Assembly (NCBI GenBank): GCA_012225525.1
Contig: GCA_012225525.1_3923.1
Source: a phage
DNA: 64,000 nt
Direction: 5' to 3' (one strand)
Shown here one piece after another: positions 20,574 through 44,211 of the stretch. The notes under the pieces are model-generated. The model did not search any database. It was not told the DNA's origin and saw only the letters and a list, made by a program, of their open reading frames with translations. Position 1 is the first letter of the stretch; each line of letters opens with the position of its first letter. The position numbers and the translations under genes were made by a program.

Positions 20574-20578
20574 AGTGT

Positions 20579-20608
20579 TTGACAAGGGGCTTCAAAGCCC
20601 CTTAGAAT
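20579..20608 (+). promoter_or_regulatory. promoter-like TTGACA/TAGAAT with hairpin in the spacer
   Basis: TTGACA at 20579, hairpin AAGGGGCTTCAAAGCCCCTT, TAGAAT about 18 bp downstream. Confidence 0.35.
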
Positions 20609-20652
20609 AGCCTTACAAAATGATTTATTAACTAACAAGAGAGAGTAATAAG

Positions 20653-21762
20653 ATGACTACTAAAACTAAAGCACAGATTGACGCAGAAATTTACAAACTG
20701 GTTAAAGAAGGTAAGCTGACTAAAACAGCTATTGCACAGAAATTTAATACTTCAACCCGTTCAGTTGGTCGTGCTGTAGAGCGTCATGAAGCAACCTTAA
20801 AAGGGAATAAGAAGGCGACTTCTACACCAGCTACGAAAACTTTGAAGCAAGTTGCTAAGACCTTTAAGAAGAAAGCTGGCAAACCAGTTGAAAAGGCTGT
20901 TAAAGACACTGTACAGAAAGCTCCAGTAAATAAACTGCACGAAGCTATGCAGAAAGATGACAAGATTGAGTACATGATTACTGGTGATTCTGTAATTATG
21001 ACTTATGGTTCAGAATCTGAAATTGTTGAGTCTACTCATCCGAACTATCAAGAGATTGTAGTTCATGTTGTGAAAGGTGAGTTCAAGAAAGCATTTGAAC
21101 TGATGAACATTCGTAAGTCTATCGAAAACTTCACTCAGGGTGCTATCACAATCAAAGGTGACAAGCTATTCTACGGTGCTGTTGAGATGCGTTCTACTCT
21201 GGTTGACCGTATTCTTCACATGATGAAAACTGGCGATAAAGGTTTTGAACGACTTGTAATGTTCTTCGAAAAACTGATGGAAAACCCATCTAAAGATTCT
21301 GTAGAACAACTTTGGGGATTTGTATCTCACCTTGATGTTGAAATTGATGAAGAAGGCTACATCATTGGTTGGAAGAAAGTCTCTACTCGTGAAGGCAAGC
21401 TGGTTGACTCTCACACCTACAAAGTTCCTAATGATTTGGGTAACATTGTAGAAATGCCACGTTGGATGGTTGATAATAACCGTAACGTAACTTGCTCTCA
21501 AGGTCTTCATGTTGGTGCTTGGGATTATGTTCGTTGCTTCTCAGGTGATACAATCCTGAAGGTTCGCGTACATCCACGAGATGTTGTATCTGTTCCAACT
21601 GATTACAACGATATGAAGATGCGTTCCTCTCGTTATGAAGTTGCAGCAATCGTTGATAATCAACGTAAAGTGCTGGAAGCATGGGACGGTAAGACTGAAG
21701 CTTTGCATGTCATCGTTGGCACTGCTGGTGAACTCATCTCTCAACGTAAACGTGAAATCTAA
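20653..21762 (+). CDS. hypothetical protein with N-terminal helix-turn-helix-like segment
   Basis: TKTAIAQKFNTSTRSVGRAVERHE near N-terminus followed by Lys-rich linker. Confidence 0.4.
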   Translation: MTTKTKAQIDAEIYKLVKEGKLTKTAIAQKFNTSTRSVGRAVERHEATLKGNKKATSTPATKTLKQVAKTFKKKAGKPVEKAVKDTVQKAPVNKLHEAMQKDDKIEYMITGDSVIMTYGSESEIVESTHPNYQEIVVHVVKGEFKKAFELMNIRKSIENFTQGAITIKGDKLFYGAVEMRSTLVDRILHMMKTGDKGFERLVMFFEKLMENPSKDSVEQLWGFVSHLDVEIDEEGYIIGWKKVSTREGKLVDSHTYKVPNDLGNIVEMPRWMVDNNRNVTCSQGLHVGAWDYVRCFSGDTILKVRVHPRDVVSVPTDYNDMKMRSSRYEVAAIVDNQRKVLEAWDGKTEALHVIVGTAGELISQRKREI

Positions 21763-21778
21763 TAAGTAATTTCTTAAA

Positions 21779-21801
21779 AGGCTGCTTCGGCGGCCTTTTT
21801 T
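21779..21801 (+). terminator. intrinsic terminator hairpin
   Basis: AAGGCTGC-TTCG-GCGGCCTT followed by TTTTTT. Confidence 0.6.
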
Positions 21802-21862
21802 ATTTGTATTTTGTGCAGAGTGCTGTATAATTGTTGTCACGATAAACTAAACAGGAGAACCA

Positions 21863-22411
21863 ATGAAGAAATTGATTCTAGGTTTGTGCTTAATGTTTAC
21901 AGCACACTTATCTTATGCAGTTGACTGCCCAGAGCTATCAATTAGCCAAAAAGTGAACATGTTAAAAGCTTACCAGTATGGTGAGAATAACATGGGTAAA
22001 GGTTGGGGTATCACTCTAGCAGCTATAGCCTTACAAGAGTCAGAGTTAGGTCTGAAGGTAGAAAATAAAAAGACCCATGACTATGGTATCTTCCAGAATC
22101 ACTTGAAGACTGTTGTAAAGCGTAACAAAATTAGTCCTAATGTTGCTAAAAAGAAACTCTTAAAAGATTTTGACTATGCCGCAAAAGAAACACATAAAGA
22201 GCTTGAGTTTTGGACGAAGGTACATGGTCACCCAAAGTCAAAGAAGACTTTACAAAAAGTTTTAGCATCATATAATGCTGGGTATTCGTACAGAATCCCT
22301 AAAGCTAAGAAATACTCTCAAGATGTCTATAACAATATGAAAGTTATCGCTCAATGTGAATTTGCAACAAACATTTCTAAGGTAAATCATGAAAAAATTA
22401 AGAAAGTCTGA
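21863..22411 (+). CDS. secreted lysozyme-like / lytic transglycosylase-like protein
   Basis: Signal-peptide-like N-terminus MKKLILGLCLMFTAHLSYA; QESELG...YGIFQNH resembles SLT catalytic region. Confidence 0.4.
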   Translation: MKKLILGLCLMFTAHLSYAVDCPELSISQKVNMLKAYQYGENNMGKGWGITLAAIALQESELGLKVENKKTHDYGIFQNHLKTVVKRNKISPNVAKKKLLKDFDYAAKETHKELEFWTKVHGHPKSKKTLQKVLASYNAGYSYRIPKAKKYSQDVYNNMKVIAQCEFATNISKVNHEKIKKV

Positions 22412-23960: not shown

Positions 23961-24123
23961 GAGTGATAAGTACACTCAAGAAGAATCACGGTATATCATC
24001 AAAGGCAACACAGGCAGTGATGTAGCAGCAGCACTTGAGTTCTACCGTGACGGCTTTTACCAGTGTACAATTAAAGCTAATAACCTTATTGACATGATTT
24101 TATTAGGGAATAAGCAGCAATGA
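23854..24123 (+). CDS. lipoprotein, possible o-spanin, overlapping 23613..23960 in another frame
   Basis: Signal peptide with lipobox-like ITMSGC; starts inside the upstream gene. Confidence 0.3.
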   Translation: MKRLSQSFIMFVLLITMSGCSTNKVNSTFKNSQVSESDKYTQEESRYIIKGNTGSDVAAALEFYRDGFYQCTIKANNLIDMILLGNKQQ

Positions 24124-24389
24124 CAGAGAATCAAGACACTTTCTATGTAGAAGGTTACTTACTGTTACCACGACCAAAAGAAACTTATATGCGAATCGAT
24201 TTCTTACCAACCATTATGGATAATGTGATGTGTCATATCTTTATGCAAGGTGTCACAGCACAGCTTAAGCATGTTGGTAAAGATTGCAAAATAAAGGTTG
24301 ACACTCATCCAGAAATCAAAGAGAATCACTACACATGGTTCTTACCAGATTCTAAAGAAATCTTAGCAGTTCTTAAAACGAGGAAGTAA
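24120..24389 (+). CDS. hypothetical protein
   Basis: Track ORF. Confidence 0.35.
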   Translation: MTENQDTFYVEGYLLLPRPKETYMRIDFLPTIMDNVMCHIFMQGVTAQLKHVGKDCKIKVDTHPEIKENHYTWFLPDSKEILAVLKTRK

Positions 24390-24391
24390 CT

Positions 24392-24718
24392 ATGCAGATT
24401 AATGGAAGAGACTTTGTAGCCGTTTACTACGAGAAAGATAAAGAAGTTGGCGTAGCACAAGTGTCTTATAGCAATGGTAAGTGGCTATATGGAACAATCG
24501 CAGTAGTTGGAACAAGAAGTGATACAAAAACTTTTAAAGATTGTGTTGACCTTCTTGAAGAATCCATTCAGAATCATTGGTGTCTGATATGGATGACTGA
24601 CAATGAAGTGATAGAACGCTTCAAAAAGATTGATATCAACATTGATAGTATTGAGCATGTTGATTTATATGAGCTAACTGAGAAGGTAAACTATGAGAGT
24701 AATTCTAGCCAGAGATAA
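24392..24718 (+). CDS. hypothetical protein
   Basis: Track ORF. Confidence 0.35.
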   Translation: MQINGRDFVAVYYEKDKEVGVAQVSYSNGKWLYGTIAVVGTRSDTKTFKDCVDLLEESIQNHWCLIWMTDNEVIERFKKIDINIDSIEHVDLYELTEKVNYESNSSQR

Positions 24719-24920
24719 AAAGACACGGAAACTCATCCGGTCAGCAGTATTCATTGGAAGAAATGAAGTCATCCCGTTTACAGCAAACGATGTGATAGCC
24801 TACAGGAAAAACTTAGTATTTAGTGATTGCTTGCGTGGCTTCATCTCCCAACCGTTGGAAGACTTTAAAAGCCGTTGTGGTAAAGGTATCATCATTCAAG
24901 AGGCAATTATCAATGGCTGA
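24693..24920 (+). CDS. hypothetical protein
   Basis: Track ORF overlapping neighbours. Confidence 0.25.
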   Translation: MRVILARDKKTRKLIRSAVFIGRNEVIPFTANDVIAYRKNLVFSDCLRGFISQPLEDFKSRCGKGIIIQEAIING

Positions 24921-25113
24921 CTTCTGCAAAGACTGTTCTATAGAAATGTTTGGACGTGATACAGGTGACTTAAAAGGTCTTATCACTGAGGATGACTTTA
25001 AAGCTGGCTACGCAATGCCAGTAATCTGTGAAGGCTGTGGGTGCATCTGGGTAGACCACGAAGGACAGCGTGTAAAACCTTCAGAAGATAAAGAGTCTTG
25101 GGAGAGATGTTAA
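24913..25113 (+). CDS. small zinc-ribbon-like protein
   Basis: ATG 24913 (MADFCKDC...CEGCGC) within track ORF 24823..25113. Confidence 0.3.
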   Translation: MADFCKDCSIEMFGRDTGDLKGLITEDDFKAGYAMPVICEGCGCIWVDHEGQRVKPSEDKESWERC

Positions 25114-25899
25114 ATGGGTATTGTAAAAATAATCAATGGTGATATCTTTGCCGCATTTGATAAAGGTAAGTTTGACATCATCGGTCACGGTTGCAACTGT
25201 ATGAATTTAATGGGTGCAGGTATCGCTGACAAGATTTCTAAACTTTACCCAAAAGCATATGAGACCGATACAGAAGTTTATCTATATGCAGGTGGTATAG
25301 GACACAAACCCTGTGAAAATTTACTGGGTAATTTCTCTGTAGCACGTTTAAAACAAGGTCGTATAGCTAACCTTTACACTCAGCTTAAGACTGGTAAAGA
25401 TGCCCGATACAGTGCTTTAGAGTCATCTTTGAAACAGCTTAACAGATACTGTGAAGTTAATCAGTTGAAGAAAGTTGGTTTACCTATGATTGGTGCAGGT
25501 ATTGGTGGGCTGGACCCTCAAGCTGTCATAGTTATCATCAATCAGGTGATGAAGAGTGTAGATGTTTATCTGTATGTCTATGAAGGAGAGATGTACCACA
25601 AGTTACGCTCAGGTTGGAAGAACTACTGTGAACCAGAATACTTTGCAGGTGTAGCAGTGTTCACAGATAACGCAGTTACCCTCTTCAGACGAAGAAAAGG
25701 TAAGATACATCAAAGTAACCCTCCGGTTGAAAAGATGTCTCTGAGTAACGCTCTAGTTACCCACCTGTCGAAGAGCAATCACAGGATTGCAGTAACATTT
25801 GGCAGTGATGCAGATACTTATATCTATGCAAGAACTGATGAGGATATCGAGACAGTTTTCTCTTCACCAGAAGTTACCTTCTTAGACGCAAAGAACTAA
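25114..25899 (+). CDS. macro-domain-like protein (ADP-ribose binding/processing)
   Basis: INGDIF...FDIIGHGCNCMNLMGAGIADKI and GLPMIGAGIGGLDP resemble macro domain N-terminal and Gly-rich motifs. Confidence 0.5.
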   Translation: MGIVKIINGDIFAAFDKGKFDIIGHGCNCMNLMGAGIADKISKLYPKAYETDTEVYLYAGGIGHKPCENLLGNFSVARLKQGRIANLYTQLKTGKDARYSALESSLKQLNRYCEVNQLKKVGLPMIGAGIGGLDPQAVIVIINQVMKSVDVYLYVYEGEMYHKLRSGWKNYCEPEYFAGVAVFTDNAVTLFRRRKGKIHQSNPPVEKMSLSNALVTHLSKSNHRIAVTFGSDADTYIYARTDEDIETVFSSPEVTFLDAKN

Positions 25900-25967
25900 G
25901 AAACTCTGTAGAATATTCACAATAGACTAAGCCTTTCTTATCTGGTAAATTTTTCAGGTAAGGAGGG

Positions 25968-26153
25968 CTTTTTCATTTCAGGATTGTGCAGGTAGAGTTC
26001 TGTAGAGAAATCTGTAGAGAGAATTTTGAACTCCAAAGAGAAAATTCATTTTCAAACTGTGCAGGTAATCTCCAAAGAGCTTTTTCATTTTCAAAACGTG
26101 CAGACCCCGCTCAGGTCGGGCAAGAAAAATCATTTTAGAATTGTGCAGGTAGG
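25968..26153 (+). repeat. four imperfect direct repeats of about 26 bp (TTTCATTTTCAAA-TGTGCAGGTA)
   Basis: Copies at about 25968, 26040, 26078, 26125; also duplicated TCTGTAGAGA and CTCCAAAGAG. Confidence 0.7.
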
Positions 26154-26154
26154 T

Positions 26155-26205
26155 TTTTATAGAGAGCCAGACCAACCCCTCTCCCCCTCTTACTCCCCCT
26201 CTCCC
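26155..26205 (+). repeat. polypyrimidine C-rich tract
   Basis: CCAGACCAACCCCTCTCCCCCTCTTACTCCCCCTCTCCCC. Confidence 0.6.
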
Positions 26206-26327
26206 CAAAAGTCAAGAGAAAAATTTGTAGTGGATTGAAAAATAATTCTTGATTTGTGTTCTGTTTTGTGGTAGTCGCGTGCGCCCGTTTCATTACAGTT
26301 TTGCTAAAAATATTTTTAAAAATTTTC

Positions 26328-26356
26328 TTGACTCTTTGAACGGGGTTATCTAATAT
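26328..26356 (+). promoter_or_regulatory. sigma70-like promoter
   Basis: TTGACT-17 bp-TAATAT upstream of first small gene. Confidence 0.55.
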
Positions 26357-26408
26357 TTGCATCAGACGGGGCGACAAGCTCAACAACCTTAAACTAGGAG
26401 ATTCAAAA

Positions 26409-26789
26409 ATGGCATATCGTGCACCTAAATTCATCAACAAAGACAACTTTCGCAACGCACTGGAGAAGTCACTTGATGAAAATTTTAAAGGTAACATTAT
26501 CGTTGTTCACGCATTCAATTTTAAGTATGATGTAAACGGGAATAGAATCAACCATTACACGGCAACCATGTCAGATGGTACACTTTCAAGTGAAAAAGCC
26601 GTACTAAATGCACTGGCAGGACGTGGAAAGGTATTAGTAAGATGTGATAAGAGACGTTATCAGGGCGGCGCATATGGTTATGATGATGCTGTTTACCATC
26701 TTGAAAATATGGGCTATCAAGTAGAAAAAGCTGGAGCATCACAAATCATCGGCAGCGATGGTTATGTAACAATCTTCAAAATTAACTGA
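26409..26789 (+). CDS. small hypothetical protein (array gene 1)
   Basis: Preceded by TTAAACTAGGAGATTCAAAAATG leader. Confidence 0.5.
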   Translation: MAYRAPKFINKDNFRNALEKSLDENFKGNIIVVHAFNFKYDVNGNRINHYTATMSDGTLSSEKAVLNALAGRGKVLVRCDKRRYQGGAYGYDDAVYHLENMGYQVEKAGASQIIGSDGYVTIFKIN

Positions 26790-26877
26790 TAAAGTACTTT
26801 ACAAGGGGCTTATAGTTCGATAAAGTAAGCCCCAGATAAAGAGCTTTACCACTAAATCCTAAATTGGAGATTCAAAA
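26786..26877 (+). repeat. cassette type B copy 1
   Basis: CTGATAAAGTACTTTACAAGGGGCTTATAGTTCGATAAAGTAAGCCCCAGATAAAGAGCTTTACCACTAAATCC...GGAGATTCAAAAATG. Confidence 0.75.
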
Positions 26878-27168
26878 ATGGCTACTATCAAAAACGTTGT
26901 AATTCCTGTAAAAACTCGTGATGACGCTCGCATCATGGCGAAAAAGTTAGGCGGGAAAGTGGTTGACAACGGAAAACAATCTGCTGTAAGATGGGGTGTG
27001 AAGGCTGATAAACAGTTGAAGTTAAAAAATTCACCAATAAATCTTTTTACATGTGTAAACACTATCGGAAAGACAAATGTATACACGAAAAAGGCATATA
27101 TTAGACGCGTAGCCTTAACATCTCCAATTCGTACAATGAGAGGTTATGCAAAGCTGAAAATTAACTGA
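26878..27168 (+). CDS. small hypothetical protein (array gene 2)
   Basis: Follows cassette B. Confidence 0.5.
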   Translation: MATIKNVVIPVKTRDDARIMAKKLGGKVVDNGKQSAVRWGVKADKQLKLKNSPINLFTCVNTIGKTNVYTKKAYIRRVALTSPIRTMRGYAKLKIN

Positions 27169-27256
27169 TAAAGTACTTTACAAGGGGCTTAAAAGTTGGT
27201 ATCTTAAGCCCCAGATAAAGAGCTTTACCACTCAATCCTAAACTGGAGATTCAAAA
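27166..27256 (+). repeat. cassette type B copy 2
   Basis: Same architecture, hairpin GGGGCTTAA...TTAAGCCCC. Confidence 0.75.
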
Positions 27257-27553
27257 ATGAAATTACCAAATAAAGTTCGTGAAAATCTAAGCAAATTACT
27301 CAACAAAATTGATTTCATTGAAACATCAAGAAATAGCCATGATGTTATGGAATGGTTACACGGCAAAATAAAAGGTCGTCGTGTAGTGATTTGCTTATGG
27401 AATAGTTGCAGGGAGTATAAAAAACCTGTATTGCAAGTTAATATCTATGATGATACTCTTAAAAGTCCTGTCAAATCTAAAAGCGATTTACTAGATTCTT
27501 ATGAGATAACTGTAAATGGCAAAGTGTCACGTAAAGAGGAAGCACCATGTTAA
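27257..27553 (+). CDS. small hypothetical protein (array gene 3)
   Basis: Follows cassette B. Confidence 0.5.
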   Translation: MKLPNKVRENLSKLLNKIDFIETSRNSHDVMEWLHGKIKGRRVVICLWNSCREYKKPVLQVNIYDDTLKSPVKSKSDLLDSYEITVNGKVSRKEEAPC

Positions 27554-27879
27554 TGACTGGTATCACTGCAATCATTGCCATTTTCGCGCTCTATAAGGCA
27601 TATAAAGCCTATAATCTAGCAAATAAGGCAATTACACAACAGGTTAGCAATAACCTTGTAATGAGCTTTCTAGAGCGGTTGAGCGATGAACAATTAAAGC
27701 GGTTAGAAATGAGCTTCAGATTCAGGGCGAGAACTTATCAAATCAGCGACATTTTCAAAGATGATTTTCAATTAGTCGATGATTATAATTCTCTGATAAA
27801 TGCTTTAAATATTAGTGACTTAAAAGACTATCATACTGTAATTGTTCAAGAGTTGAGCAAACGAAAACAAAACTGTTGA
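27547..27879 (+). CDS. small membrane-associated hypothetical protein (array gene 4)
   Basis: N-terminal hydrophobic segment; overlaps previous stop. Confidence 0.4.
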   Translation: MLMTGITAIIAIFALYKAYKAYNLANKAITQQVSNNLVMSFLERLSDEQLKRLEMSFRFRARTYQISDIFKDDFQLVDDYNSLINALNISDLKDYHTVIVQELSKRKQNC

Positions 27880-27969
27880 CACTGGTTTTTAGATAGATTA
27901 AATTACACATCAACGGGGAGGGAATGACCTTCCCCACTAAATAAAGTCCTTAAACTAGGAGATTCTAAA
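27876..27969 (+). repeat. cassette type A copy 1 (promoter TTGACA-17-TAAATT, hairpin 27915..27935, RBS)
   Basis: TTGACACTGGTTTTTAGATAGATTAAATT...GGGGAGGGAATGACCTTCCCC...TTAAACTAGGAGATTCTAAAATG. Confidence 0.75.
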
Positions 27970-28242
27970 ATGTATACTACTAACAATGGCCGCACTTTGA
28001 ACGTCACACTACGTCACTATGTAGATGGTGTCATGCACTTTGAAGATTTACAAGCTGAACAACATATCTTAGATTGGCAAGTCGCAGGACTCCAAAAAAC
28101 TGCTACGGGATACGGTAAAAAGATTCCAACTAGTTGGAAAGTTCACTATGAAGGACGTTTGCGCAGAATTTATCAAGATGTGCAAAGCAATAGTGCATCG
28201 AGTTACATTATAGTAAAAGGTAAAAAACTGCATTTAGTGTAA
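27970..28242 (+). CDS. small hypothetical protein (array gene 5)
   Basis: Follows cassette A. Confidence 0.5.
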   Translation: MYTTNNGRTLNVTLRHYVDGVMHFEDLQAEQHILDWQVAGLQKTATGYGKKIPTSWKVHYEGRLRRIYQDVQSNSASSYIIVKGKKLHLV

Positions 28243-28325
28243 AGTACTTTACAGGGGGTTATCAAGCTGATAAGATAGCCCCAGATAAAGAGCTTTACCA
28301 CTAATCCTAAATTGGAGATTCAAAA
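28243..28325 (+). repeat. cassette type B copy 3
   Basis: AAAGTACTTTACAGGGGGTTATCAAGCTGATAAGATAGCCCCAGATAAAGAGCTTTACCACT. Confidence 0.7.
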
Positions 28326-28730
28326 ATGGCTATCAATAATCGTGAATTATCAATCTTAAAAGCACGTTTGACCGTTAATCGAATCAATGTTATCACGTCA
28401 TCAGCACCGGATGAAACATTGCACAACATTATCGGAAAGATTCAAAGCGTTATCTTAGACGTTGAAAACGTAAAAAGTTCATTGGCTGACGTTGCAGCAG
28501 GTATCACGCTAGACGGTGCGCAATATGAAATGGCTGACATGTTAGGCAAATCAAAGGTAATGAATAAAGAACTTGATTTAAAAATGTTTCGATTTGCCGT
28601 GAAAGTATGGCTATCCGTCGAGTATGACGCTAATTTTGCAATCGCTGATTTCTTCGCCACTTGGTTGCAACGTAATTTGACAAATCATGATTTTCGTGAC
28701 ATCTGCGACGCAATTTATGCAGAACTCTAA
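28326..28730 (+). CDS. small hypothetical protein (array gene 6)
   Basis: Follows cassette B. Confidence 0.5.
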   Translation: MAINNRELSILKARLTVNRINVITSSAPDETLHNIIGKIQSVILDVENVKSSLADVAAGITLDGAQYEMADMLGKSKVMNKELDLKMFRFAVKVWLSVEYDANFAIADFFATWLQRNLTNHDFRDICDAIYAEL

Positions 28731-28738
28731 AAATTTTA

Positions 28739-28831
28739 TTGACACTGATTTTTAGATAGATTAAATTACACATCAACGGGGAGGGAATGACCTTCCCCAC
28801 TAAGTAAAGTCCTTAAACTAGGAGATTCAAA
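28739..28831 (+). repeat. cassette type A copy 2 (promoter TTGACA-17-TAAATT, hairpin 28778..28798, RBS)
   Basis: Near-identical to copy 1. Confidence 0.75.
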
Positions 28832-29029
28832 ATGGCTATTATCAACGGTTTAACCATTGAAACCACGCACATCAAAGACATTAAAGTTGGTGATGTAGTT
28901 CTTTCCCACGGCGTAGAAAAAACAGTCACTGCAAAGGATATCAAAGATGATTCTTTCATGGGTAGAACTCTCTTCGGTGATTCTTATTGCTTAGGTTATC
29001 TTGCAGTTTTAAAAGTTGTCAAAAATTAA
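28832..29029 (+). CDS. small hypothetical protein (array gene 7)
   Basis: Follows cassette A. Confidence 0.5.
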   Translation: MAIINGLTIETTHIKDIKVGDVVLSHGVEKTVTAKDIKDDSFMGRTLFGDSYCLGYLAVLKVVKN

Positions 29030-29122
29030 CTGATAAAGTACTTTACAAGGGGCTTATAGTTCGATAAAGTAAGCCCCAGATAAAGAGCTTTACCACTAAA
29101 TCCTTAAACTAGGAGATTCAAA
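29030..29122 (+). repeat. cassette type B copy 4
   Basis: Near-identical to copy 1. Confidence 0.75.
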
Positions 29123-29665
29123 ATGAAATGCTTTCACGGTACTACTCAAGAAAACTTTATCAACCTGATTAATAACGGTGATAAACCATCAGGTGTATGG
29201 AATTGTTCGGATATGGACGGCAATTTTTACGTGTACCCAGAAAATAAACTCTATGGTGATGATGAGGAAGAGATAGCATCGGAAGGTATCCAGCAAGCTC
29301 TAGGAAATGCCACTATCACGGCAGCTTTTCAGATGAAAACTCAAAATATTGTTATCTTAGAACTTGACATTCCAGAGGATGAGCTAAATGATGATTATTC
29401 TTGTGATAACATGTCAAATATAGCAAGCTTTACAGAGTACTTTGATGTAAATTGGATTAAAAAGGTCTATACAACAGAGTTCAACGCTATGTATTCACCT
29501 TTTTGTCTCCCTTCACTGGATAACCCAAATTTAAATTATCTTGATGAAACATTGGAGCTACTTGCTAAAAGTATCCAACAATCCGACAGTATTCAGGTTT
29601 TTTGTGACATCATGGATACACTGACAGAAAACATTGTAGAGAGTGATTTAAAGGTCTTTTTCTAA
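29123..29665 (+). CDS. hypothetical protein (array gene 8, 180 aa)
   Basis: Follows cassette B. Confidence 0.5.
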   Translation: MKCFHGTTQENFINLINNGDKPSGVWNCSDMDGNFYVYPENKLYGDDEEEIASEGIQQALGNATITAAFQMKTQNIVILELDIPEDELNDDYSCDNMSNIASFTEYFDVNWIKKVYTTEFNAMYSPFCLPSLDNPNLNYLDETLELLAKSIQQSDSIQVFCDIMDTLTENIVESDLKVFF

Positions 29666-29731
29666 AAACCTATACATTCACCTTATAAACACTGATTAAC
29701 CCCTTACAGGGGCTTTTAGAGGGCTTAAATC

Positions 29732-29965
29732 ATGCTTACAACCATTTATCTCATCCTTTCCATTTGTAACGGCCATTCATGTGACTTTAAAGGGCTTGAA
29801 GAGTTTACAGGAAGTAAAGAAAATGCTATTCAAGTTTGCCAGATAGCAAGACAAGACTACCCCGCCAGTGATGATATACAATGTTACTTTAAGACAGAAG
29901 ATGACGAAGGAATCTATTTCGACAGTGTCGATGGTCAATATGAAATTATCATTGAAAAAGACTAG
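29732..29965 (+). CDS. small hypothetical protein (array gene 9)
   Basis: Preceded by hairpin CCCCTTACAGGGG; no A/B cassette. Confidence 0.4.
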   Translation: MLTTIYLILSICNGHSCDFKGLEEFTGSKENAIQVCQIARQDYPASDDIQCYFKTEDDEGIYFDSVDGQYEIIIEKD

Positions 29966-30058
29966 ACAAGCCTGATAAAAGTCTGTAAATTATCAATCAA
30001 CGGGGAGGGAATGACCTTCCCCACTAAGTAAAGTCCTTAAACTAGGAGATTCCAAAAA
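29966..30058 (+). repeat. cassette type A copy 3 (hairpin 30002..30022)
   Basis: ATCAACGGGGAGGGAATGACCTTCCCCACTAAGTAAAGTCCTTAAACTAGGAGATTCC. Confidence 0.7.
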
Positions 30059-30307
30059 ATGTATACTAAAACTCAACTAAAAAACATGGTTAGCAATGGC
30101 TTAATGGATGAAGTCTATAAAGAGTGTAGACGCTACGGGGAAATTAAGGATAAGACTAGTTATGAGTATACCCACACAATAGACTTTAAAACCAATGAGA
30201 AGAGGACTGACCTTGTTACTGTAGTAGTGATTGAGTATAAACGAATTATTTGGACCTTTGAGCTAGTAAAAGGTGAGTGCACAGAGATAGAATATAAAGA
30301 CGCTTAA
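30059..30307 (+). CDS. small hypothetical protein (array gene 10)
   Basis: Follows cassette A. Confidence 0.5.
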   Translation: MYTKTQLKNMVSNGLMDEVYKECRRYGEIKDKTSYEYTHTIDFKTNEKRTDLVTVVVIEYKRIIWTFELVKGECTEIEYKDA

Positions 30308-30392
30308 AGTACTTTACATGGGGCTTATTAGTCTGTATAGTAAGCCCCAGATAAAGAGCTTTACCACTCAATCCTAAACTGGAGATTCTAAA
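30308..30392 (+). repeat. cassette type B copy 5
   Basis: AAGTACTTTACATGGGGCTTATTAGTCTGTATAGTAAGCCCCAGATAAAGAGCTTTACCACT. Confidence 0.7.
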
Positions 30393-30734
30393 ATGGCTTA
30401 TGTAACCGTAATTACCGATAAAGCTGGCTCATCTTGGTCAACTCAAGTAAGTGATAAGATGTCACCTATGCAGTGCCTAAAATACTTTGAACAGTGGAAC
30501 AAAGGCGAGGGTGTAAGCCCCTTTCAAGTGATGCAAATCATCCATACAGATAACGAAGGGAATAAAACGACCTTGAACAGTGAATACTACGCAAGCCGTT
30601 TTGAAACGAGAAGTAAAACAATGAAGCTTTTACGTGAATCCGGTTATGCACATATTGCCGCTTTAATCTGGGATGACCTGCTAAAAAGTCAGCGTATCAG
30701 CTATGTAAAACCTGAAAAAATATTCATCAGTTAA
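30393..30734 (+). CDS. small hypothetical protein (array gene 11)
   Basis: Follows cassette B. Confidence 0.5.
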   Translation: MAYVTVITDKAGSSWSTQVSDKMSPMQCLKYFEQWNKGEGVSPFQVMQIIHTDNEGNKTTLNSEYYASRFETRSKTMKLLRESGYAHIAALIWDDLLKSQRISYVKPEKIFIS

Positions 30735-30862
30735 TCAATAACTTATAAAAAACTTTTAAAAAAGTGTTGACAATACCCATTGACATTGGTAACTTTGTTC
30801 GAGGGGGTTATCTAAAAGGGATTCACTTAATAGATTCTTTATAGATAAACTTAAAAAATTGC

Positions 30863-30955
30863 TTGCAAAGGCAAATCAAAACAAGTATAGTACTAATCAA
30901 CGGGGAGGGAATGACCTTCCCCACTAAGTAAAGTCCTTAAACTAGGAGATTCAAA
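30863..30955 (+). repeat. cassette type A copy 4 (promoter TTGCAA-17-TATAGT, hairpin 30902..30922)
   Basis: Additional TTGACA-like elements at about 30769-30790. Confidence 0.7.
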
Positions 30956-31486
30956 ATGAACAAGTTTCAAGCTATCAACTACATTCGCTCATCTAACGTT
31001 ATGACTAAACCCGTTAAAGATACCTTCGAATTTCGTTGCAACGGTGTACACTTTGCAACTATCACTAAATCAGAAAACGGGGCTTATTATATACATCGTC
31101 GTAATGTTTCTACTGTTGTAGTATCTCACTTTATGCAAGCTGTAGCAGAACTGTTACCGCTATTCTTAGGTATTTACTTAGATGAGTGTAAAAACGTTCG
31201 CAACCACGTTAAAGACCTTTTAAATGGTTATAAAATGGCTTATGAACGTTCTATCAAGAATCTTAACAAGTTCTATAAAGCCCCTGAAAACACCGTATCA
31301 ATAGCTTATGATGTAAGCGGTGAAATGGTCAACCTCTCCAATGTAGAACAAATTGGCCTTTATGATTTACGTCCTAGCGGTTATTCTAAGACTCTCGGTG
31401 AAGGCTTATCCTTCAATATCAAGAACTTAGAAAAAACTTTAAAAGATATTGAAAAAGATATTGACGAGACAATCAAAAGTCTGTAA
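30956..31486 (+). CDS. hypothetical protein (array gene 12, 176 aa)
   Basis: Follows cassette A. Confidence 0.5.
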   Translation: MNKFQAINYIRSSNVMTKPVKDTFEFRCNGVHFATITKSENGAYYIHRRNVSTVVVSHFMQAVAELLPLFLGIYLDECKNVRNHVKDLLNGYKMAYERSIKNLNKFYKAPENTVSIAYDVSGEMVNLSNVEQIGLYDLRPSGYSKTLGEGLSFNIKNLEKTLKDIEKDIDETIKSL

Positions 31487-31553
31487 ATTGTCAATCAACG
31501 GGGAGGGATTAACCTTCCCACTAAGTAAAGTCCTTAAACTAGGAGATTCAAAA
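31487..31553 (+). repeat. cassette type A copy 5 (variant hairpin 31499..31518)
   Basis: GGGGAGGGATTAACCTTCCC variant then TTAAACTAGGAGATTCAAAAATG. Confidence 0.7.
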
Positions 31554-31817: not shown

Positions 31818-31884
31818 ATTACTAATCAACGGGGAGGGAATGACCTTCCCACTAAACAAAGTCCTAAACTGGAGAATCTAAATT
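31818..31884 (+). repeat. cassette type A copy 6 (hairpin 31831..31850)
   Basis: ATCAACGGGGAGGGAATGACCTTCCCACTAAACAAAGTCCTAAACTGGAGAATC. Confidence 0.7.
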
Positions 31885-32133: not shown

Positions 32134-32143
32134 TCGACGCAAC

Positions 32144-32196
32144 GGGGCTAAATAGCCCCAGATACCTGAAAAGCTCCTTCTCATAGGGGCTTTTTT
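32144..32196 (+). terminator. terminator region ending the rightward small-gene array
   Basis: Hairpin GGGGCTAAATAGCCCC, then GGGGCTTTTTT. Confidence 0.5.
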
Positions 32197-32199: not shown

Positions 32200-33700
32200 T
32201 CTATAAAGAGACTCTATACAATCCCTTTCCTTTCCTTCCTAGAATCTATCCCGTACCTTAAAAGCAATAACTCTATAGGTTATTCTATAGCCCCTTATCA
32301 AATCAACTTAAATAAAAGCCAATAACCCCAGAAAGGGGATGGCCCATTAAAACGCTCTATAAAGCTCTATAACAGCCTTATCAACCTAACTTAAGCAATC
32401 ATATTAACCCACTCTAAAAAGCCCTTTATAGAGCTTCCCAGAGCCTTAAAAGAATCTTATAAGGGTGTAAGTTTATAGGCTGGCTAGTATCTTGTGAATA
32501 ACTAAACAATCCCCTTGATAGTCACTAAAAAGCATGTTATAGGGGGTATAAAGTTACTTCAAAGTAACGTAAAAAAGGCTATAAAGTTACGTAAATGCTA
32601 GCCCCCTTAACATTTTCTTAACAATTTCTTAACAATCCCTACATAGTTATGCTTGTTAGCCCCTTGTTAAATCTCTGTTAAGACCACGTAAAAGCCTTGT
32701 AAGAGTCTTTGACATAGCCTTAAAAGCTCCTGTAAAGCCCTATAAAGAGGTGTCTGTATAGTTGGGGTGTAATTACTAGGAAGAGACTTAAAAGAGCTTA
32801 CAAGGAGCTATAGAGAGCTTTTAAGAGGTATGTTTAAGAGTTCACTAAGAAAGGAAGGGAACGATAAGAAAAGAGATAGTGACCATGTTAATAGCTTGTT
32901 AAAAAGATTAAACACTTGTTAGGAACTTGTTAATTATCTTAATTGGTATTGTTACCAATCCCTACAAAATAACTCTTTAAAATTAACTTGTTAGCTCTTG
33001 TTAGTCATCTGTTAAGCCTCTGTAAAGACTATTCAGCACTTGTTAGAAAACTGTTAAGCCCTTGTTAGTTCTGTTAAGAAACTGTTAAGACCTTTGAAGA
33101 GATGTTAAGAGCTTGAGAGAGTTGTTAAGAGATTGTTAAGGATATTTTAAAATTTTGCAAAGTACTTGTAAGGGAGCTGTTAAGGGCTACCAAGCAGATA
33201 TACATCTTCTACAGATATTTTTCAGTCCCTTCAAAGACCCTAAAAAATGACTTGATAGTCCTATTTTATAAAAATTTTAAAATTCTGAATAATTACCTAG
33301 ACAGTCTTTTAAAAATACAGGTAGAAACAGGCTTATAAGATACCTTGTTAGTACCGTGTTAGACCTTGTGAGATAAGGTCTGTAAAGATATTCCTGTTAA
33401 GTTTGTTAAAACAGTCTATATAGAGGCTTAGTAGTGCCTAGTGAACACCTATAGAGGGTAACATAGCTAACCTAGAGATTAAGAGGTGTATAGGAGCTTC
33501 TAAGAGGGTGTAGAGAGATGGTTAAGGTGATTGTATAGGTTGTTAAGAAGGCTTGTTAGAAGAGTGTTTAGAAGGGCTATACAGAGGGGCTATTAAGACC
33601 ACTAGATAGATACTAAGATACTATATAGTACTATATAACTATATAGAGAGTAAGATTAAGAAGGTTGTTAAGAAGGGTAGATATTTTATTCACATATGAT
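32200..33700. repeat. ORF-free, motif-dense non-coding region (about 1.5 kb)
   Basis: No ORF of 60 aa or more on either strand; dozens of short motifs (CTTGTTAG, CTGTTAAG, TTGTTAAGA, CTATAAAG, TTAAAAG, TATAGAG). Confidence 0.8.
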
Positions 33701-33739
33701 GGTGACCCAGCGGTTGGGACAACCGATAAATTTTATAAA

Positions 33740-33778
33740 AATTAAAAAGCCCCCGATTAAGGAGGCTCTTAAGATATT
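33740..33778 (-). terminator. probable terminator for the leftward block
   Basis: Minus-strand hairpin around GAGCCTCC/GGGGGC followed by T-run; approximate. Confidence 0.35.
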
Positions 33779-36839: not shown

Positions 36840-36911
36840 ATCTATTCTCCAGAAACTAAAAAGGGAACTACCTTTCGATAGCTCCCATCATAATCAATAT
36901 TGTATACTCGG

Positions 36912-37493
36912 TCAAGAGTATTTTTTAGGCAGTAATGCACTGCGCTTGTTGCTCTCTTCACTCAGCAGTGCGATAAATTCATCACCTTTACCCTTCCACG
37001 GGCTAAATGTAGGGATGTGTTCTCTGATAGCGTCAATCACTGTTTTCAGGGCATTGTTTTTTAGCCACCAATCAGACACTGCTGAAGCTACAATATAATA
37101 AGCACCATCATCTGTGAAGATTGGCTCAGAGATACATGGTGAAATCATAGTGGTGATGATAGAGCCGTTATTCATGTAATATGTTCTTTTTTCAACCTTA
37201 TCAAGAAGCTTATGTAGGTCTGCAAAGAGACTCACAACCTCTTTATGGTCAATATCTTTTTCAAGATTTGCTCTATATTTCAGCAGTGCAGCATCAACCT
37301 CTTTATCATTAAATTTGAAGTACTGGACTTCTTCATTCACACATACACTGATGTTGTTAGTGTTTATCGTCAATTTGCACAGTTTGACTGGAGAGTTGAT
37401 GTTGGTCTGAAAAAGTGCTACACAGCCTTCTACATTTCCGAAATGTTTTACTAATGTAACTTCTGGTTGGATATGCTCATGTTCTTCTGACAT
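36912..37493 (-). CDS. hypothetical protein
   Basis: Track ORF, 193 aa. Confidence 0.45.
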   Translation of the reverse strand: MSEEHEHIQPEVTLVKHFGNVEGCVALFQTNINSPVKLCKLTINTNNISVCVNEEVQYFKFNDKEVDAALLKYRANLEKDIDHKEVVSLFADLHKLLDKVEKRTYYMNNGSIITTMISPCISEPIFTDDGAYYIVASAVSDWWLKNNALKTVIDAIREHIPTFSPWKGKGDEFIALLSEESNKRSALLPKKYS

Positions 37494-38903: not shown

Positions 38904-38931
38904 AGCTTTCTCCTTAGAAAATAAAAAAGGC

Positions 38932-38954
38932 TCCCGAAGGAGCCTATGAAGATA
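38932..38954 (-). terminator. intrinsic terminator after endolysin gene
   Basis: Minus-strand AGGCTCC-TTCG-GGAGCCT followed by TTTTTT. Confidence 0.55.
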
Positions 38955-39419
38955 TTACTTTGGGTATACACTGTCAAGATAAATGTCAGCTTCCATTCTA
39001 CGTCTGTTTTTCAGACCGTTTGAAGTGACCTTCTTACCTTTGACTGTAACCTTGTTCCACCACTGCATAGCTTCTGCACAACCTACCTTATTACCGGCAT
39101 TGTGGCGCTTGATAAATGTGGAATCCTGCATAGCTGTGATACCGATGTTGTATGTTTCACTTACAAGTGCATCGAACTCATTCTGAGTAGTTGGAACCTT
39201 GATAGCTTTGTTCACTGCTGCAACAAACTTCTCAACATCCGCGAGAAGATACTGTTCAGCTTGTTCAGCAGTAATTTTCATACCCATCTTAACAGGTTTT
39301 CCGTCAATACGGATTGTCCCATACCCGATTGTTGGGATTCCGGCAGAATCTTCGTAAGCCTCTAACTCCAGACCTTCGAAGAACTTAATAGCATCTAAAC
39401 CTTTTCTTGAGAGTTGCAT
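38955..39419 (-). CDS. endolysin, phage lysozyme (GH24 muramidase-like)
   Basis: LELEAYEDSAGIPTIGYGT motif typical of T4/lambda-type lysozymes; 154 aa. Confidence 0.7.
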   Translation of the reverse strand: MQLSRKGLDAIKFFEGLELEAYEDSAGIPTIGYGTIRIDGKPVKMGMKITAEQAEQYLLADVEKFVAAVNKAIKVPTTQNEFDALVSETYNIGITAMQDSTFIKRHNAGNKVGCAEAMQWWNKVTVKGKKVTSNGLKNRRRMEADIYLDSVYPK

Positions 39420-42177: not shown

Positions 42178-42549
42178 ATGAAAAACAGAACAAACAAAGG
42201 CCAGTTTAAAAAAGGCCAGTCTGGAAACCCATCTGGAAGACCAAAAGGCTCTCGTAACAAAAGCTCACTTGTAAAAGCTCAACTGACCATTGATAATTCT
42301 GCTGAGTTTGCTGCAAAGTTGTTTGAGGCGATTGTTACAAGGGACGCGGCTAAGCTTGCAGAGTTTGGGTTAAACACAGACGACGTAACCATCAAGAGCA
42401 TGATTGAGGTCGGTAAAACTATCATGACCCACTCAGCAGGTGAGATGAAAGCAATTGCAGCAGATACTAAGAAGACTCCTGATAATGGTGGTCAGTCTCA
42501 GACAGATAACAAACCAACGTTCTCTGCTGTTGCAACCCTTAAAAAATAA
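42178..42549 (+). CDS. hypothetical protein with N-terminal GNPSGRPKG motif (possible nucleic-acid binding)
   Basis: KGQSGNPSGRPKGSRNK near N-terminus. Confidence 0.4.
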   Translation: MKNRTNKGQFKKGQSGNPSGRPKGSRNKSSLVKAQLTIDNSAEFAAKLFEAIVTRDAAKLAEFGLNTDDVTIKSMIEVGKTIMTHSAGEMKAIAADTKKTPDNGGQSQTDNKPTFSAVATLKK

Positions 42550-42561
42550 TTTTAAAAGATG

Positions 42562-42595
42562 TTGACAGACTCTATAAAGTTGCTCTAAAGTCTGT
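42562..42595 (+). promoter_or_regulatory. promoter-like TTGACA embedded in hairpin GACAGACT...AGTCTGTC
   Basis: TTGACA at 42562; 8-bp inverted repeat spans spacer. Confidence 0.35.
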
Positions 42596-42630
42596 CACAT
42601 CAAACAACAAATGAGAGAAGAGAGTAAAAT

Positions 42631-44046
42631 ATGAGCGAATTATTTAAACATGCGCACCTTCATGCAGGTCGAACTGAAAATGGTGCTGTAAACCATACTT
42701 CATCAATGTCTACTCTTGTAGACTTTTACAAAGCTGCTGGTTCAAGCCGTAGCAATGTAGAAATCTTACCAGACTTGTTCTACAAAGCTTTGCGTGAGGA
42801 TGTTGATGTTGCAGTTCGTATTTTACTGCATATGCGAGATGTACGAGAAGGCATGGGTGAGCGTAAAGCCTTCAGAACTGTTTTGCTTCAAGCGATTGAA
42901 GATGAAGTTTTAGAGCCTACGCAGGTTCTTCGCATTATGGATAAGATTGCAGAACTTGGTCGTTTTGATGACTTCAAAATCTTTGTAGGTACTCGTTTCG
43001 AGACAGATGCCTTCAAGCATTTAGAAGCAGCATTACTAGACCCTGCAACAGCAGGTTTGGCGGCTAAGTGGTTACCACGAGTCAAACCACGTCATAAGCA
43101 GTTTGTAAAACGTTTCTGCAAGTTTGCCAACTTGAGTGAGAAAGAGTACCGCACACTGTTGTCTGCACTATCTGATACAGTTGAGCAAAAAATCTCTGCT
43201 AATGAGTTTGGTAAGATTGACTACAGTAAGATTCCTTCACTTGCTGCTGCACGTTACCAAAAACTGTTTAACCGTAAAGATGGAGAGCGTTACAAAGCTT
43301 ACATCGAGTCCTTATCAAAAGGTGAGACTAAGATTAACGCTGGTGCTGTTTACCCATACGATGTGATTAAATCTTTCAAGTATGGTAATGCAGATGTTGC
43401 TAATGAGCAGTGGAAAGCACTACCAAACTGGATGGCAGAAGGTGAAAACATCTTGTGTATGTCTGATGTATCAAGTTCAATGTCTTGGGTGAATTTTGGC
43501 TCCATTACTGCTCTGGATATTGGTGTATCACTTGCCTTGTATGTAGCAGAACGCAATACAGGTTGCTTTAAGAATGAGTTGATGGTTTATTCGACAAACC
43601 CTCACTTCATCGAACTGAGTGGTGATTTACGAAACCGTCATCGTCAGGTGATGCGACACGTTGAATATGGCTCAACTAACTTACAAGCAGCTTTTGACCG
43701 CATTCTTGAAACAGGTAAAAGAAACAACTTGACTCAGAAAGATATGCCAAGTAAGCTTATCATCTTCTCCGATATGGAGTTCAATCAGGTTGATGGAGCT
43801 AACGGTCGTACAAACTTTGAAGCAATTCAGAGTAAGTACAAAAAAGCTGGATATGAGATGCCACAACTGGTATTCTGGTACTTAGCAAACCGTAATGGTA
43901 CTTGCGAAGTATCTGTTAAGGATAACGGTGTAGCAATGGTATCAGGGTTCTCTCCAGCCACTTTAAAAGCTCTGCTTGGTGGTGAGAAGTTTGACCCAAT
44001 CAGTGTAATGCTCAAAGCAGTAATGATTGACCGTTATATCTGGTAA
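42631..44046 (+). CDS. von Willebrand factor A (vWA) domain protein with MIDAS motif
   Basis: DVSSSMS (DxSxS) MIDAS motif about residue 280; 471 aa; sits immediately upstream of the tRNA array. Confidence 0.5.
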   Translation: MSELFKHAHLHAGRTENGAVNHTSSMSTLVDFYKAAGSSRSNVEILPDLFYKALREDVDVAVRILLHMRDVREGMGERKAFRTVLLQAIEDEVLEPTQVLRIMDKIAELGRFDDFKIFVGTRFETDAFKHLEAALLDPATAGLAAKWLPRVKPRHKQFVKRFCKFANLSEKEYRTLLSALSDTVEQKISANEFGKIDYSKIPSLAAARYQKLFNRKDGERYKAYIESLSKGETKINAGAVYPYDVIKSFKYGNADVANEQWKALPNWMAEGENILCMSDVSSSMSWVNFGSITALDIGVSLALYVAERNTGCFKNELMVYSTNPHFIELSGDLRNRHRQVMRHVEYGSTNLQAAFDRILETGKRNNLTQKDMPSKLIIFSDMEFNQVDGANGRTNFEAIQSKYKKAGYEMPQLVFWYLANRNGTCEVSVKDNGVAMVSGFSPATLKALLGGEKFDPISVMLKAVMIDRYIW

Positions 44047-44064
44047 AAAGTTTTAAAAAGGGTA

Positions 44065-44093
44065 TTGACAATGTGTTTAATACCCTTTAATAT
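44065..44093 (+). promoter_or_regulatory. sigma70-like promoter for tRNA array, -35 inside hairpin
   Basis: TTGACA-17-TAATAT; flanking inverted repeat AAGGGTATT/AATACCCTT. Confidence 0.5.
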
Positions 44094-44211
44094 GTTCTAC
44101 ATAGAAACGAAATGAGAGCTTTTCTAAGATACTGAAAAATATTTTAAAAAAGTTCTTGACAACCACTAAAAAATAATGTTAAAGTGGTTACATAGAGTTT
44201 GAAAAGTTTAT

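Follow-up and report, generated by a model that had tools for sequence, protein, structure and literature searches.

The DNA studied here is a 64,000-nt window (the whole stretch that was analysed, contig GCA_012225525.1_3923.1) from a Felix O1-like myovirus of Escherichia coli, genus Felixounavirus. A 4-kb stretch of it is 97-98% identical to many such phages, and its small-gene region is 96-98% identical to that of phage wV8. Our subject is a set of promoters of host sigma70 type that share their short intergenic gaps with hairpins. Three of them, S1, S2 and S3, lie beside conserved genes, in gaps of only 79-81 nt. S3 is at the junction between rIIA (18207-20573) and rIIB (20653-21762), two genes identified by synteny with wV8 and with Erwinia phage phiEa21-4, a Kolesnikvirus and thus of another genus and another host. 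S2 and S1 stand on either side of a 471-aa + strand gene (42631-44046), whose product is called a Ro-like RNA-binding protein (DUF2828) in the annotations of relatives, and S1 is the first promoter of an array of 26 tRNA genes (44212-49367). The remaining units include 11 repeated cassettes (5 of type B and 6 of type A) between the small genes at 26.8-31.9 kb.

The S1 promoter (44057-44093, + strand) consists of TTGACA at 44065-44070, a 17-nt spacer and TAATAT at 44088-44093. It carries a hairpin of 10 bp with a loop of 12 nt, whose arms are AAAGGGTATT (44057-44066) and AATACCCTTT (44079-44088): the -35 box lies partly in the 5' arm and partly in the loop, and the last base of the 3' arm is the first of the -10 box. 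This hairpin begins 11 nt past the stop codon of the Ro-like gene, and its U-rich tail overlaps the -10 box. It was flagged as terminator-like, with a borderline U-tract (4-5 U in the next 8 nt) and a loop of 8 nt if the stem is extended. S2, upstream of the Ro-like gene (42558-42602, +), has TTGACA at 42562-42567, an 18-nt spacer and TAAAGT at 42586-42591. Its arms, TGACAGACT (42563-42571) and AGTCTGTCA (42589-42597), form 9 bp around a 17-nt loop; the -35 box itself forms the 5' arm, and the end of the -10 box with the next 6 nt forms the 3' arm. At S3 (20579-20608, +), with TTGACA at 20579-20584, an 18-nt spacer and TAGAAT at 20603-20608, the hairpin AAGGGGCT-TCAA-AGCCCCTT (20584-20603) lies inside the spacer and begins 11 nt past the rIIA stop codon. 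A second promoter of the tRNA array (44156-44189, +), TTGACA-18-TAAAGT, has arms AACCACT (44161-44167) and AGTGGTT (44183-44189), the 3' arm ending 4 nt past the -10 box. The preliminary description of this DNA had reported S1, S2 and S3 as promoters flanked by inverted repeats, and a check of the sequence found all three as described. Its heading, which placed the -35 hexamer inside a stem-loop, fits S1 and S2 better than S3, where only the last base of the -35 box is in the stem. Folding z-scores against dinucleotide shuffles are -3.2, -3.9 and -2.9 for S1, S2 and S3, respectively.

The type-B cassettes, all on the + strand, enclose an entire promoter in a two-tier hairpin of about 60 nt. 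Copy 1 (26789-26877) reads TTTACA-17-TAAAGT, with GGGGCTTA/TAAGCCCC as its inner stem and TAAAGTACTTTA/TAAAGAGCTTTA as the outer one, followed by a 5' untranslated region (UTR), a Shine-Dalgarno sequence (SD) and ATG; its hairpin has a folding energy (dG) of -22.6 and a z-score of -4.9. Copy 2 (27168-27256) has the -10 box TATCTT and the stem GGGGCTTAA/TTAAGCCCC, and copy 3 (28239-28325) has TAAGAT and the stem GGGG(G)TTATC/GATAGCCCC with a T.G pair; copy 4 lies at 29033-29122 and copy 5, with TATAGT, at 30304-30392. A 3x3 internal loop and an A.A mismatch divide the helix of about 19 bp into three paired segments (8, 5 and 5-6 bp), and the loops are 10-13 nt long.

Type-A cassettes, which the preliminary description had said combine a promoter with a hairpin, do so in this window, again on the + strand. 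The copy at 27876-27969 has TTGACA-17-TAAATT and, 10 nt past the -10 box, the hairpin GGGGAGGG-AATGA-CCTTCCCC (27915-27935; dG -15.2, z -4.0), then SD and ATG. The copy at 28726-28831 has an extra AT-rich stem, TCTAAAAAT/ATTTTTAGA (28726-28756), with the -35 box in its loop. Further copies lie at 29963-30058 (TAGACA-17-TAAATT; its SD-proximal segment is the junction of a common indel), at 30863-30955 (TTGCAA-17-TATAGT) and at 31461-31556 (TTGACG-17-TAAATT, the promoter flanked by ATTGAC and GTCAAT). A remnant at 31805-31884 keeps the hairpin and UTR and holds no promoter-like site scoring at least 9/12. The type-A hairpin starts about 3 nt inside the predicted 5' end of its own mRNA.

Several features of the cassettes were noted in passing. 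An invariant type-A hairpin and UTR is joined to at least six different promoter modules (27876-31884 in the window and contigs L063-L086 among the relatives). The segment between the -10 box and the hairpin also comes in interchangeable versions, ACACATCAAC, GTCAATCAAC, ACTAATCAAC and ATCAATCAAC, which suggests recombination within cassettes as well as between them. The 5' UTRs of both types contain a common near-palindrome, TAAAG(T/A)(C/G)CTT(A/T)A, about 20-30 nt upstream of the SD. It is found at 27942-27953, 28805-28816, 30029-30040, 30929-30940 and 31526-31537 in type A, and at 26837-26848 and in the four paralogues in type B, where it doubles as the 3' strand of the outer helix. This motif may have a separate role, for example as a translational operator.

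To judge whether the promoters are real, we compared 124 type-B cassettes from 26 genomes (3-9 copies per relative), which contain 84 unique cores. The -35 box TTTACA is invariant in 84/84 cores. Positions 1, 2 and 6 of the -10 box are invariantly T, A and T while positions 3-5 are free, giving 12 forms of the hexamer, and the invariant TA falls in the loop of the hairpin. Of the 84 cores, 79 have a 17-nt spacer and 46 have TG before the -10 box. The T-A-n-n-n-T pattern together with the invariant -35 box is thus the conservation signature of a sigma70 promoter. At S1-S3 and the 44156 promoter, compared across 23-39 relatives, only 2 of 48 hexamer columns vary. The 25 nt upstream of the -35 box have a mean AT content of 74% over 21 units, versus 61% (standard deviation 8) for random 25-mers of the genome.

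The hairpins are maintained as well. Stem columns at S1-S3 and 44156 vary less often than loop columns (8/51 versus 15/38, p=0.015), and the variant pair states comprise 6 G.T, 1 A.C and 2 others. At S1 both stem changes turn T-A into T.G, and 4/8 loop columns are variable. Among 33 relatives, the variable columns at S2 number 0/12 in the hexamers, 1/10 in the stem (A-T to G.T) and 8/14 in the loop, and a diverged clade retains a 10-bp stem with two G.U pairs. Hexamers and stem of S3 are conserved in 30 relatives with a variable loop (TCAA, TTGA or GAAA). The stem changes at 44156 are C-G to T.G and A-T to G.T, and in a diverged clade the stem has shifted to AACACTA/TAGTGTT.

In type B, 92-93% of cells are paired in the proposed structure; sliding the partners lowers this to 30-55%. 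Alignment A4 was built with a covariance model from + strand copies only, those of Erwinia phages included. In it, compensatory double changes occur at three pairs (G-C to U-A twice and U-A to A-U once) in 15 cells, a number reached by 0/500 shuffles, and the covariation score is 0.087 versus at most 0.025 in the slid controls. A 63-nt cassette subfamily is misregistered at the two innermost pairs in alignments A1 and A4, and a swap of TTA/TAA to TAT(C)/(G)ATA that is visible there by eye was excluded from the counts. G.T cells outnumber A.C cells by 125 to 6, the G.T variants being common and the A.C variants singletons, and the covariance model scores + strand copies at 58-90 bits but their reverse complements at 24-44 bits. 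These two asymmetries are what is expected for selection on a + strand RNA, not on a DNA palindrome. The comparisons thus show stems that are kept, with a bias pointing to the + strand (RNA), and loops that drift.

We surveyed every intergenic gap of 40-300 nt in the window and counted at least 20 promoter-plus-hairpin units; S1-S3 are instances of a genome-wide habit. The units fall into four classes according to the position of the hairpin. In the first, the 5' arm begins 1-8 nt past the start of the -35 box and the 3' arm ends 4-9 nt past the -10 box; its members are S2, 44156, the five type-B copies and a unit at 1387-1424 (+, TTGACA-17-TAGAAT), whose 10-bp stem AGAGTATCAA/TTGGTACTCT (one G.U pair; z -2.1) runs from the spacer to 9 nt past the -10 box. 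In the second, comprising S3 and S1, the hairpin precedes the -10 box. In the third, which we call promoter-terminator (P/T) units, the 5' arm of a canonical terminator starts 1-4 nt past the -10 box and 6-7 U are found in the next 8 nt. These units lie at 14056-14115 (+, TTGAAA-17-TACTAT abutting the terminator AAGGGGACT..GGTTCCCTT TTTATTTT), 17615-17671 (+, TTGACA-16-TATGAT, 3 nt, then AGGCTCC-TACG-GGAGCCT TTTT), 36855-36915 (-, TTGACC-17-TATGAT abutting GGGAGCTATC-GAAA-GGTAGTTCCC TTTTT) and 38920-38977 (-, TTGACA-17-TATCTT, 3 nt, then AGGCTCC-TTCG-GGAGCCT TTTTTT). The fourth class is formed by the six type-A cassettes, with the hairpin 10 nt past the -10 box. Hairpins begin 10-20 nt past the upstream stop codon, except where the promoter precedes them. 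In relatives, the 36915(-) unit has conserved hexamers, a variable spacer, an invariant terminator and different downstream genes. At 38977(-) conservation extends over the entire unit; as the unit overlaps the end of a coding sequence, this is uninformative.

Of the 60-nt stretches of the genome, 1.4% contain a perfect inverted repeat with 8 bp or more and a loop of 3-22 nt. The 64 kb hold about 25 distinct repeats of this kind, 8 of which coincide with promoter-like sites. When paralogous cassettes are counted once, about 4 cases are independent, and the promoter families number at most about 20; a binomial estimate then gives a probability of about 1e-4. S1, S2 and S3 are sigma70-type promoters interlocked with perfect 8-10 bp inverted repeats, beyond what chance would provide. 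The folding z-scores of the structures on which our interpretation is built range from -2.9 to -4.9.

The same arrangements occur with other sequences in phiEa21-4. We found there TTTACA-17-TAGTAT with GGTGTTTATAC/GTATAAGCACC, a site reading (TTTACA or TTGCAA)-17-GATTAT with GGGGTTATGGTT/GATTATAACCCC, and further stems of the same geometry, including GGTGTTTA/TAAGCACC. A promoter TTGACA-18-TAAAAT has its -10 box as the loop of GAGGGG/CCCCTC, a terminator with TTTACA in its loop is followed by a T-tract and then TATACT, and at the tRNA promoter GAAGC/GCTTC bracket the -10 box. The rIIA/rIIB junction of phiEa21-4 keeps a hairpin, GGGCTG-GAAA-CAGCCC, with no recognisable promoter, and a more distant contig (L062) has a different hairpin at this junction, over the -10 box. 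The comparison shows that the predicted structure and its placement recur across genera; the sequence does not.

The cassettes also coincide with the places where gene content changes. We aligned positions 24000-33500 to 24 relatives; cassettes make up 19% of the 26-32 kb region, yet 127 of 173 alignment breakpoints (73%) fall in them, as do 31 of 51 distinct breakpoint clusters (p=6e-10). A gene at 30059-30307 is missing together with one cassette (copy 5, 30304) from 17/24 relatives. The gene driven by a type-B cassette in the window is placed directly under a type-A cassette in L064, L072 and L078, where the junction lies in the shared SD-proximal segment. Different genes also follow the 36915(-) unit in relatives. 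By BLAST, the cassette sequences occur essentially only in the Felix O1 group (phages of Escherichia, Salmonella, Shigella and Citrobacter, with type B also in Erwinia phages), and thus were not borrowed from T4-like phages. Type B amounts to roughly 1,400 copies, carried by 289 GenBank genomes.

It is instructive to compare these units with the promoter-early stem-loop (PeSL) cassettes described in the T4-like phages RB49/phi1, T4/PST and KVP40/nt-1 (Arbiol et al. 2010, PMC2839356; Comeau et al. 2014, PMC4122927). PeSLs combine a strong sigma70-like promoter and an AT-rich upstream region with a stable stem-loop, often polyG..polyC or A3-4G3..C3T3-4 with G-T pairs, which is placed between the boxes, over the -35 or -10 box, upstream, or just past the -10 box (PMC2839356, PMC4122927). 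An SD and ATG follow, and the elements are clustered between ORFans and bound indels that separate close relatives (PMC2839356, PMC4122927). When a PeSL stem-loop was placed between lacZ and the promoter that drove it, expression fell by as much as with rrnB T1, and recombination junctions were mapped in or beside the stem-loop (PMC2839356). The units studied here have the same kind of promoter with an AT-rich upstream region, stem-loops in every positional class named in PMC2839356, stems of the polyG..polyC or A3-4G3..C3T3-4 style with G-T pairs, and the promoter variant TTTACW-N17-TAYWAT. They are intergenic with an SD and ATG at the 3' end, are clustered between small ORFan genes, and bound indels or replacements between close relatives. 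The repeated-element, hyperplastic-region character of PeSLs is found in the cassettes at 26.8-31.9 kb but not in S1, S2 and S3, which are single-copy and stand beside conserved genes. The carriers differ, being Ounavirinae (Felixounavirus and Kolesnikvirus) and not T4-like phages, which is a limit of the published description, not a mechanistic criterion. The cassette sequences are unrelated to those of published PeSLs, type B has an extra outer helix that puts the whole promoter inside the two-tier hairpin, and four units have a canonical terminator immediately past the -10 box. Every sequence-level property of a PeSL was found here, and the units are of PeSL type as far as this can be known from sequence alone.

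Taken together, we consider it probable that these are composite promoter/stem-loop units of the PeSL type, in which the hairpin acts in RNA arriving from upstream and the promoter restarts transcription. In this model, the 50-100 nt between co-directional genes would hold a host sigma70 promoter for the downstream gene and a hairpin present only in RNA that derives from upstream. The arms occupy those parts of the promoter that sigma70 does not read (the spacer, the discriminator past the -10 box and the AT-rich region before the -35 box), sometimes pairing with a hexamer. The 3' arm of most units stops short of the expected start (about 7 nt past the -10 box) or ends within about 2 nt of it, and in the P/T units the expected start falls inside the 5' arm and leaves only 3-4 nt of that arm. 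With this placement, the unit's own transcript cannot form the full hairpin but read-through transcripts can. The hairpin would end, attenuate or 3'-protect the upstream message, and the embedded promoter would restart transcription at or past the 3' arm, making each small gene an insulated module. Type A would be an exception, as its hairpin is predicted to be part of its own mRNA, where a role in stabilising the 5' end is more likely. Because the cassettes share 60-100 nt of sequence, they would also be sites of homologous recombination by which modules of a gene and its cassette are added, deleted or swapped. We infer the start sites, the termination or processing activity and the recombination mechanism from the sequence.

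Several observations weigh against this interpretation. The start sites were assumed from the usual rule (about 7 nt past the -10 box), and we found no mapping of transcript starts or ends for Felix O1-like phages in the searchable literature. Only 1 U is found in the 8 nt after the stem at S2, S3 and type B, and 2 in type A. Lacking a U-tract (and, for S2, having a 17-nt loop), these are poor intrinsic terminators by sequence. The 44156 hairpin has a weak folding z-score of -1.3, many shuffles folding equally well, and for S1-S3 alone, stem columns within the spacer do not differ significantly from the non-stem columns there (p=0.13). The covariation in type B is modest: double changes occur in only 3/20 pairs, a number of pairs reached by 33/500 shuffles, so that this measure is only suggestive, and the A4 alignment was fitted to the model from sequences that are related paralogues or orthologues and not independent. 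Some small stems close to promoters are clearly due to chance. We rejected one candidate, at 36901-36920 (-), where ATACTC/GAGTAT, a stem of 6 bp, has as its loop exactly the -35 box TTGACC of the 36915(-) unit; GAATAT, found in about half of the relatives, breaks the stem by an A.C mismatch, and the stem is therefore probably fortuitous.

The secure likeness to intrinsic terminators is accordingly confined to part of the set. A GC-rich stem soon after a stop codon is typical of terminators and is found here, and at S1 and the four P/T units a U-rich tail is present as well. A U-tract is lacking in S2, S3 and both cassette types, and the loops of S2 (17 nt) and type B (10-13 nt) exceed the 3-8 nt of intrinsic terminators, within which S3 (4 nt) and the P/T units fall. 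True termination is thus doubtful for S2, S3 and the repeated cassettes, where attenuation, processing or 3'-end protection appears equally possible; U-tracts are found only at S1 (borderline) and the P/T units. The preliminary description had offered two readings, a combined terminator/promoter module or a protein-binding site that occludes the promoter. The former is the better and is partly supported: the placement 10-16 nt past the upstream stop codons, the sigma70-like hexamers, the G.U-biased and compensatory stem changes and the match to PeSLs all agree with it, but by sequence its terminator half is secure only for the P/T units and, at the borderline, S1.

The strongest competitor, which we regard as possible though clearly less likely, is that the hairpins are elements of RNA processing or stability rather than terminators (cut by RNase III, blocking 3' exonucleases or, in type A, protecting the 5' end), with the overlap of promoters a matter of compaction. 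The early RNase III sites of T7 are intergenic helices of about 20 bp with internal loops, on long early transcripts of the host polymerase. The type-B helix is comparable in size and style, with about two mostly paired turns (8, 5 and 5-6 bp), a 3x3 loop and an A.A mismatch, and would suit RNase III as a substrate. This likeness is limited to type B and does not extend to sequence, and to our knowledge the T7 hairpins do not overlap promoters as those here do. A 5' stem-loop of the ompA type stabilises mRNA from such a position as that of the type-A hairpin, about 3 nt past the predicted start. The missing U-tracts of S2, S3 and both cassette types and the hairpin kept at the rIIA/rIIB junction of phiEa21-4 without a recognisable promoter also agree with processing. 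The U-tracts at S1 and four other units do not, nor does the effect of the PeSL stem-loop on lacZ, which matched that of rrnB T1 (PMC2839356) and means that U-poor phage stem-loops can stop transcription. It is improbable, in our view, that the overlap at S1-S3 is a coincidence of tight packing, in which a gene-end hairpin and a promoter, both of the ordinary kind, occupy the same short AT-rich gap with no selected relation. Stop codon, hairpin, promoter, UTR and SD must indeed all fit into gaps of 79-81 nt, each of these sites places the hairpin differently with respect to the hexamers, and the spacer contrast at S1-S3 alone is the non-significant one given above. This explanation differs from the PeSL-type reading only in denying that the geometry matters, and it must contend with the enrichment over chance. 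The 3' arm recurrently ends 4-9 nt past the -10 box, or a terminator 5' arm starts 1-4 nt past it, and this geometry recurs with new sequences in phiEa21-4; we argue from this recurrence that the exclusion of the hairpin from the unit's own transcript is selected.

The other two alternatives place the function in DNA. That the inverted repeats are operators, at which a phage or host protein occludes the promoter and shuts off early transcription, seems very unlikely. The repeats do overlap -35 or -10 boxes; the -35 box of type B lies in a perfect 12-bp palindrome, TAAAGTACTTTA, with a near-copy, TAAAGAGCTTTA, 47 bp downstream; and the palindromic motif is over-represented, with 32 matches (one mismatch allowed) versus 5.9 expected. 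However, S1, S2, S3, 44156, 1387 and the cassettes have no stem sequence in common, distant relatives carry different sequences at the equivalent place, and the half-site spacings are inconsistent (4-24 nt). The exact palindrome occurs only in type-B cassettes and at one other site, and TAAAGNNCTTTA was rejected as a general operator, being confined to the type-B cassettes. The excess of G.T over A.C, both in type-B cells and in the states at S1-S3 and 44156 (6 versus 1), is unexpected for recognition of double-stranded DNA, and the low scores of reverse-strand copies argue in the same direction. The protein-binding reading of the preliminary description falls on the same grounds: unrelated stems between promoters, different hairpins in distant relatives, and a single palindromic motif limited to one cassette type. 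Least probable of all is that the structures act as DNA without any RNA role, either as cruciforms or single-strand hairpins that tune promoters with supercoiling or as signals for recombination or replication. Cruciform extrusion is disfavoured by loops of 10-17 nt and by G.T pairs, both of which occur here, and the strand asymmetry indicates RNA. The concentration of gene-content breakpoints in cassettes would fit such a role, as would the PeSL junctions in or beside the stem-loop (PMC2839356), but the junction observed here lies in the SD-proximal direct repeat, not in the hairpin. Felix O1 has no polymerase of the kind that uses hairpin promoters (PMC3185647). The hairpin promoters of N4, which also associate a promoter with an inverted repeat, were considered in this context; they have short stems and 3-nt loops and are read on single-stranded DNA by the virion RNA polymerase. 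We rejected this type on the loops of 4-17 nt, the sigma70 consensus hexamers and the lack of a phage polymerase (PMC3185647).

We found no paper that applies the PeSL concept to Felix O1-like phages. The Felix O1 genome paper gives the cassettes only as 57-bp and 39-bp direct repeats, calls the timing of transcription and its passage past many terminators unknown, and reports that the phage encodes no RNA polymerase of its own (PMC3185647). The wV8 record (NC_012749; L169) labels the cassettes only as repeat regions DR_1-DR_9 and annotates no promoters, and the wV8 paper mentions neither repeats nor promoters. In the same record, two cassette hairpins (12062-12106 and 13581-13601) are called 'Rho-independent terminator' on the complementary strand, though the flanking genes are all on the + strand. 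Rfam at the gathering threshold returned only tRNAs over the entire window; the cassettes belong to no curated RNA family.

The PeSL-type reading yields a testable map of early promoters and of the upstream transcript ends to be expected. It would account for the differences in gene content between rIIB and the lysis genes among near-identical phages used for therapy and typing, and it would carry the PeSL concept, until now linked to T4-like phages, over to another myovirus lineage that is unrelated to them, as a known kind of element and not a new one. The cassettes could serve as insulated expression modules and predictable recombination sites in the engineering of Bas63, wV8 and Felix O1. 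More tentatively, and with less than even confidence, we suggest that the Felix O1 group (Ounavirinae) has a PeSL-like system of its own, independent of that in T4-like phages, in which a two-tier hairpin enclosing the promoter and 'terminator-immune' promoters, with the start site in the 5' arm of the terminator, would insulate small early genes and provide recombination handles that move ORFans between phages. If this is true, promoter-embedded hairpins would be a general, convergent route to modular gene exchange in large lytic phages.

Three further regions of the window deserve brief mention. The Ro-like gene (42631-44046), directly upstream of the tRNA array, is missing in phiEa21-4, and homologues with 30-47% identity occur in many unrelated large phages (of Vibrio, Campylobacter, Mycobacterium and Listeria). 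A protein-alignment scan of viral contigs with the Ro-like protein gave relatives of at least 84% identity and others of at most 44%, with nothing in between; those in the lower group are unrelated phages and added no homologous S1 or S2 junctions. Right after a terminator at 25929-25970, four copies of a motif of about 25 nt, TTTTCATTTyCAnnnTGTGCAGGTA, are spaced 40-45 nt apart (25975-26210) and are followed by a polypyrimidine run, CCCCTCTCCCCCTCTTACTCCCCCTCTCCCC. A similar four-copy array (TTTTTCATTTTCAATTTGTGCATAG) is found at the equivalent place in phiEa21-4 (L168, about 9330-9500), and to judge by these copies the array is a conserved, iteron-like one. Finally, about 1.6 kb at 32134-33778, between converging blocks of + and - strand genes, has no open reading frame of at least 50 aa. 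Short TGTTAAG/CTGTTAAG repeats are dense at 33000-33185, inverted copies (TTCTTAACA) lie at 32604-32640, and the region is a possible origin, packaging site or genome-end region.

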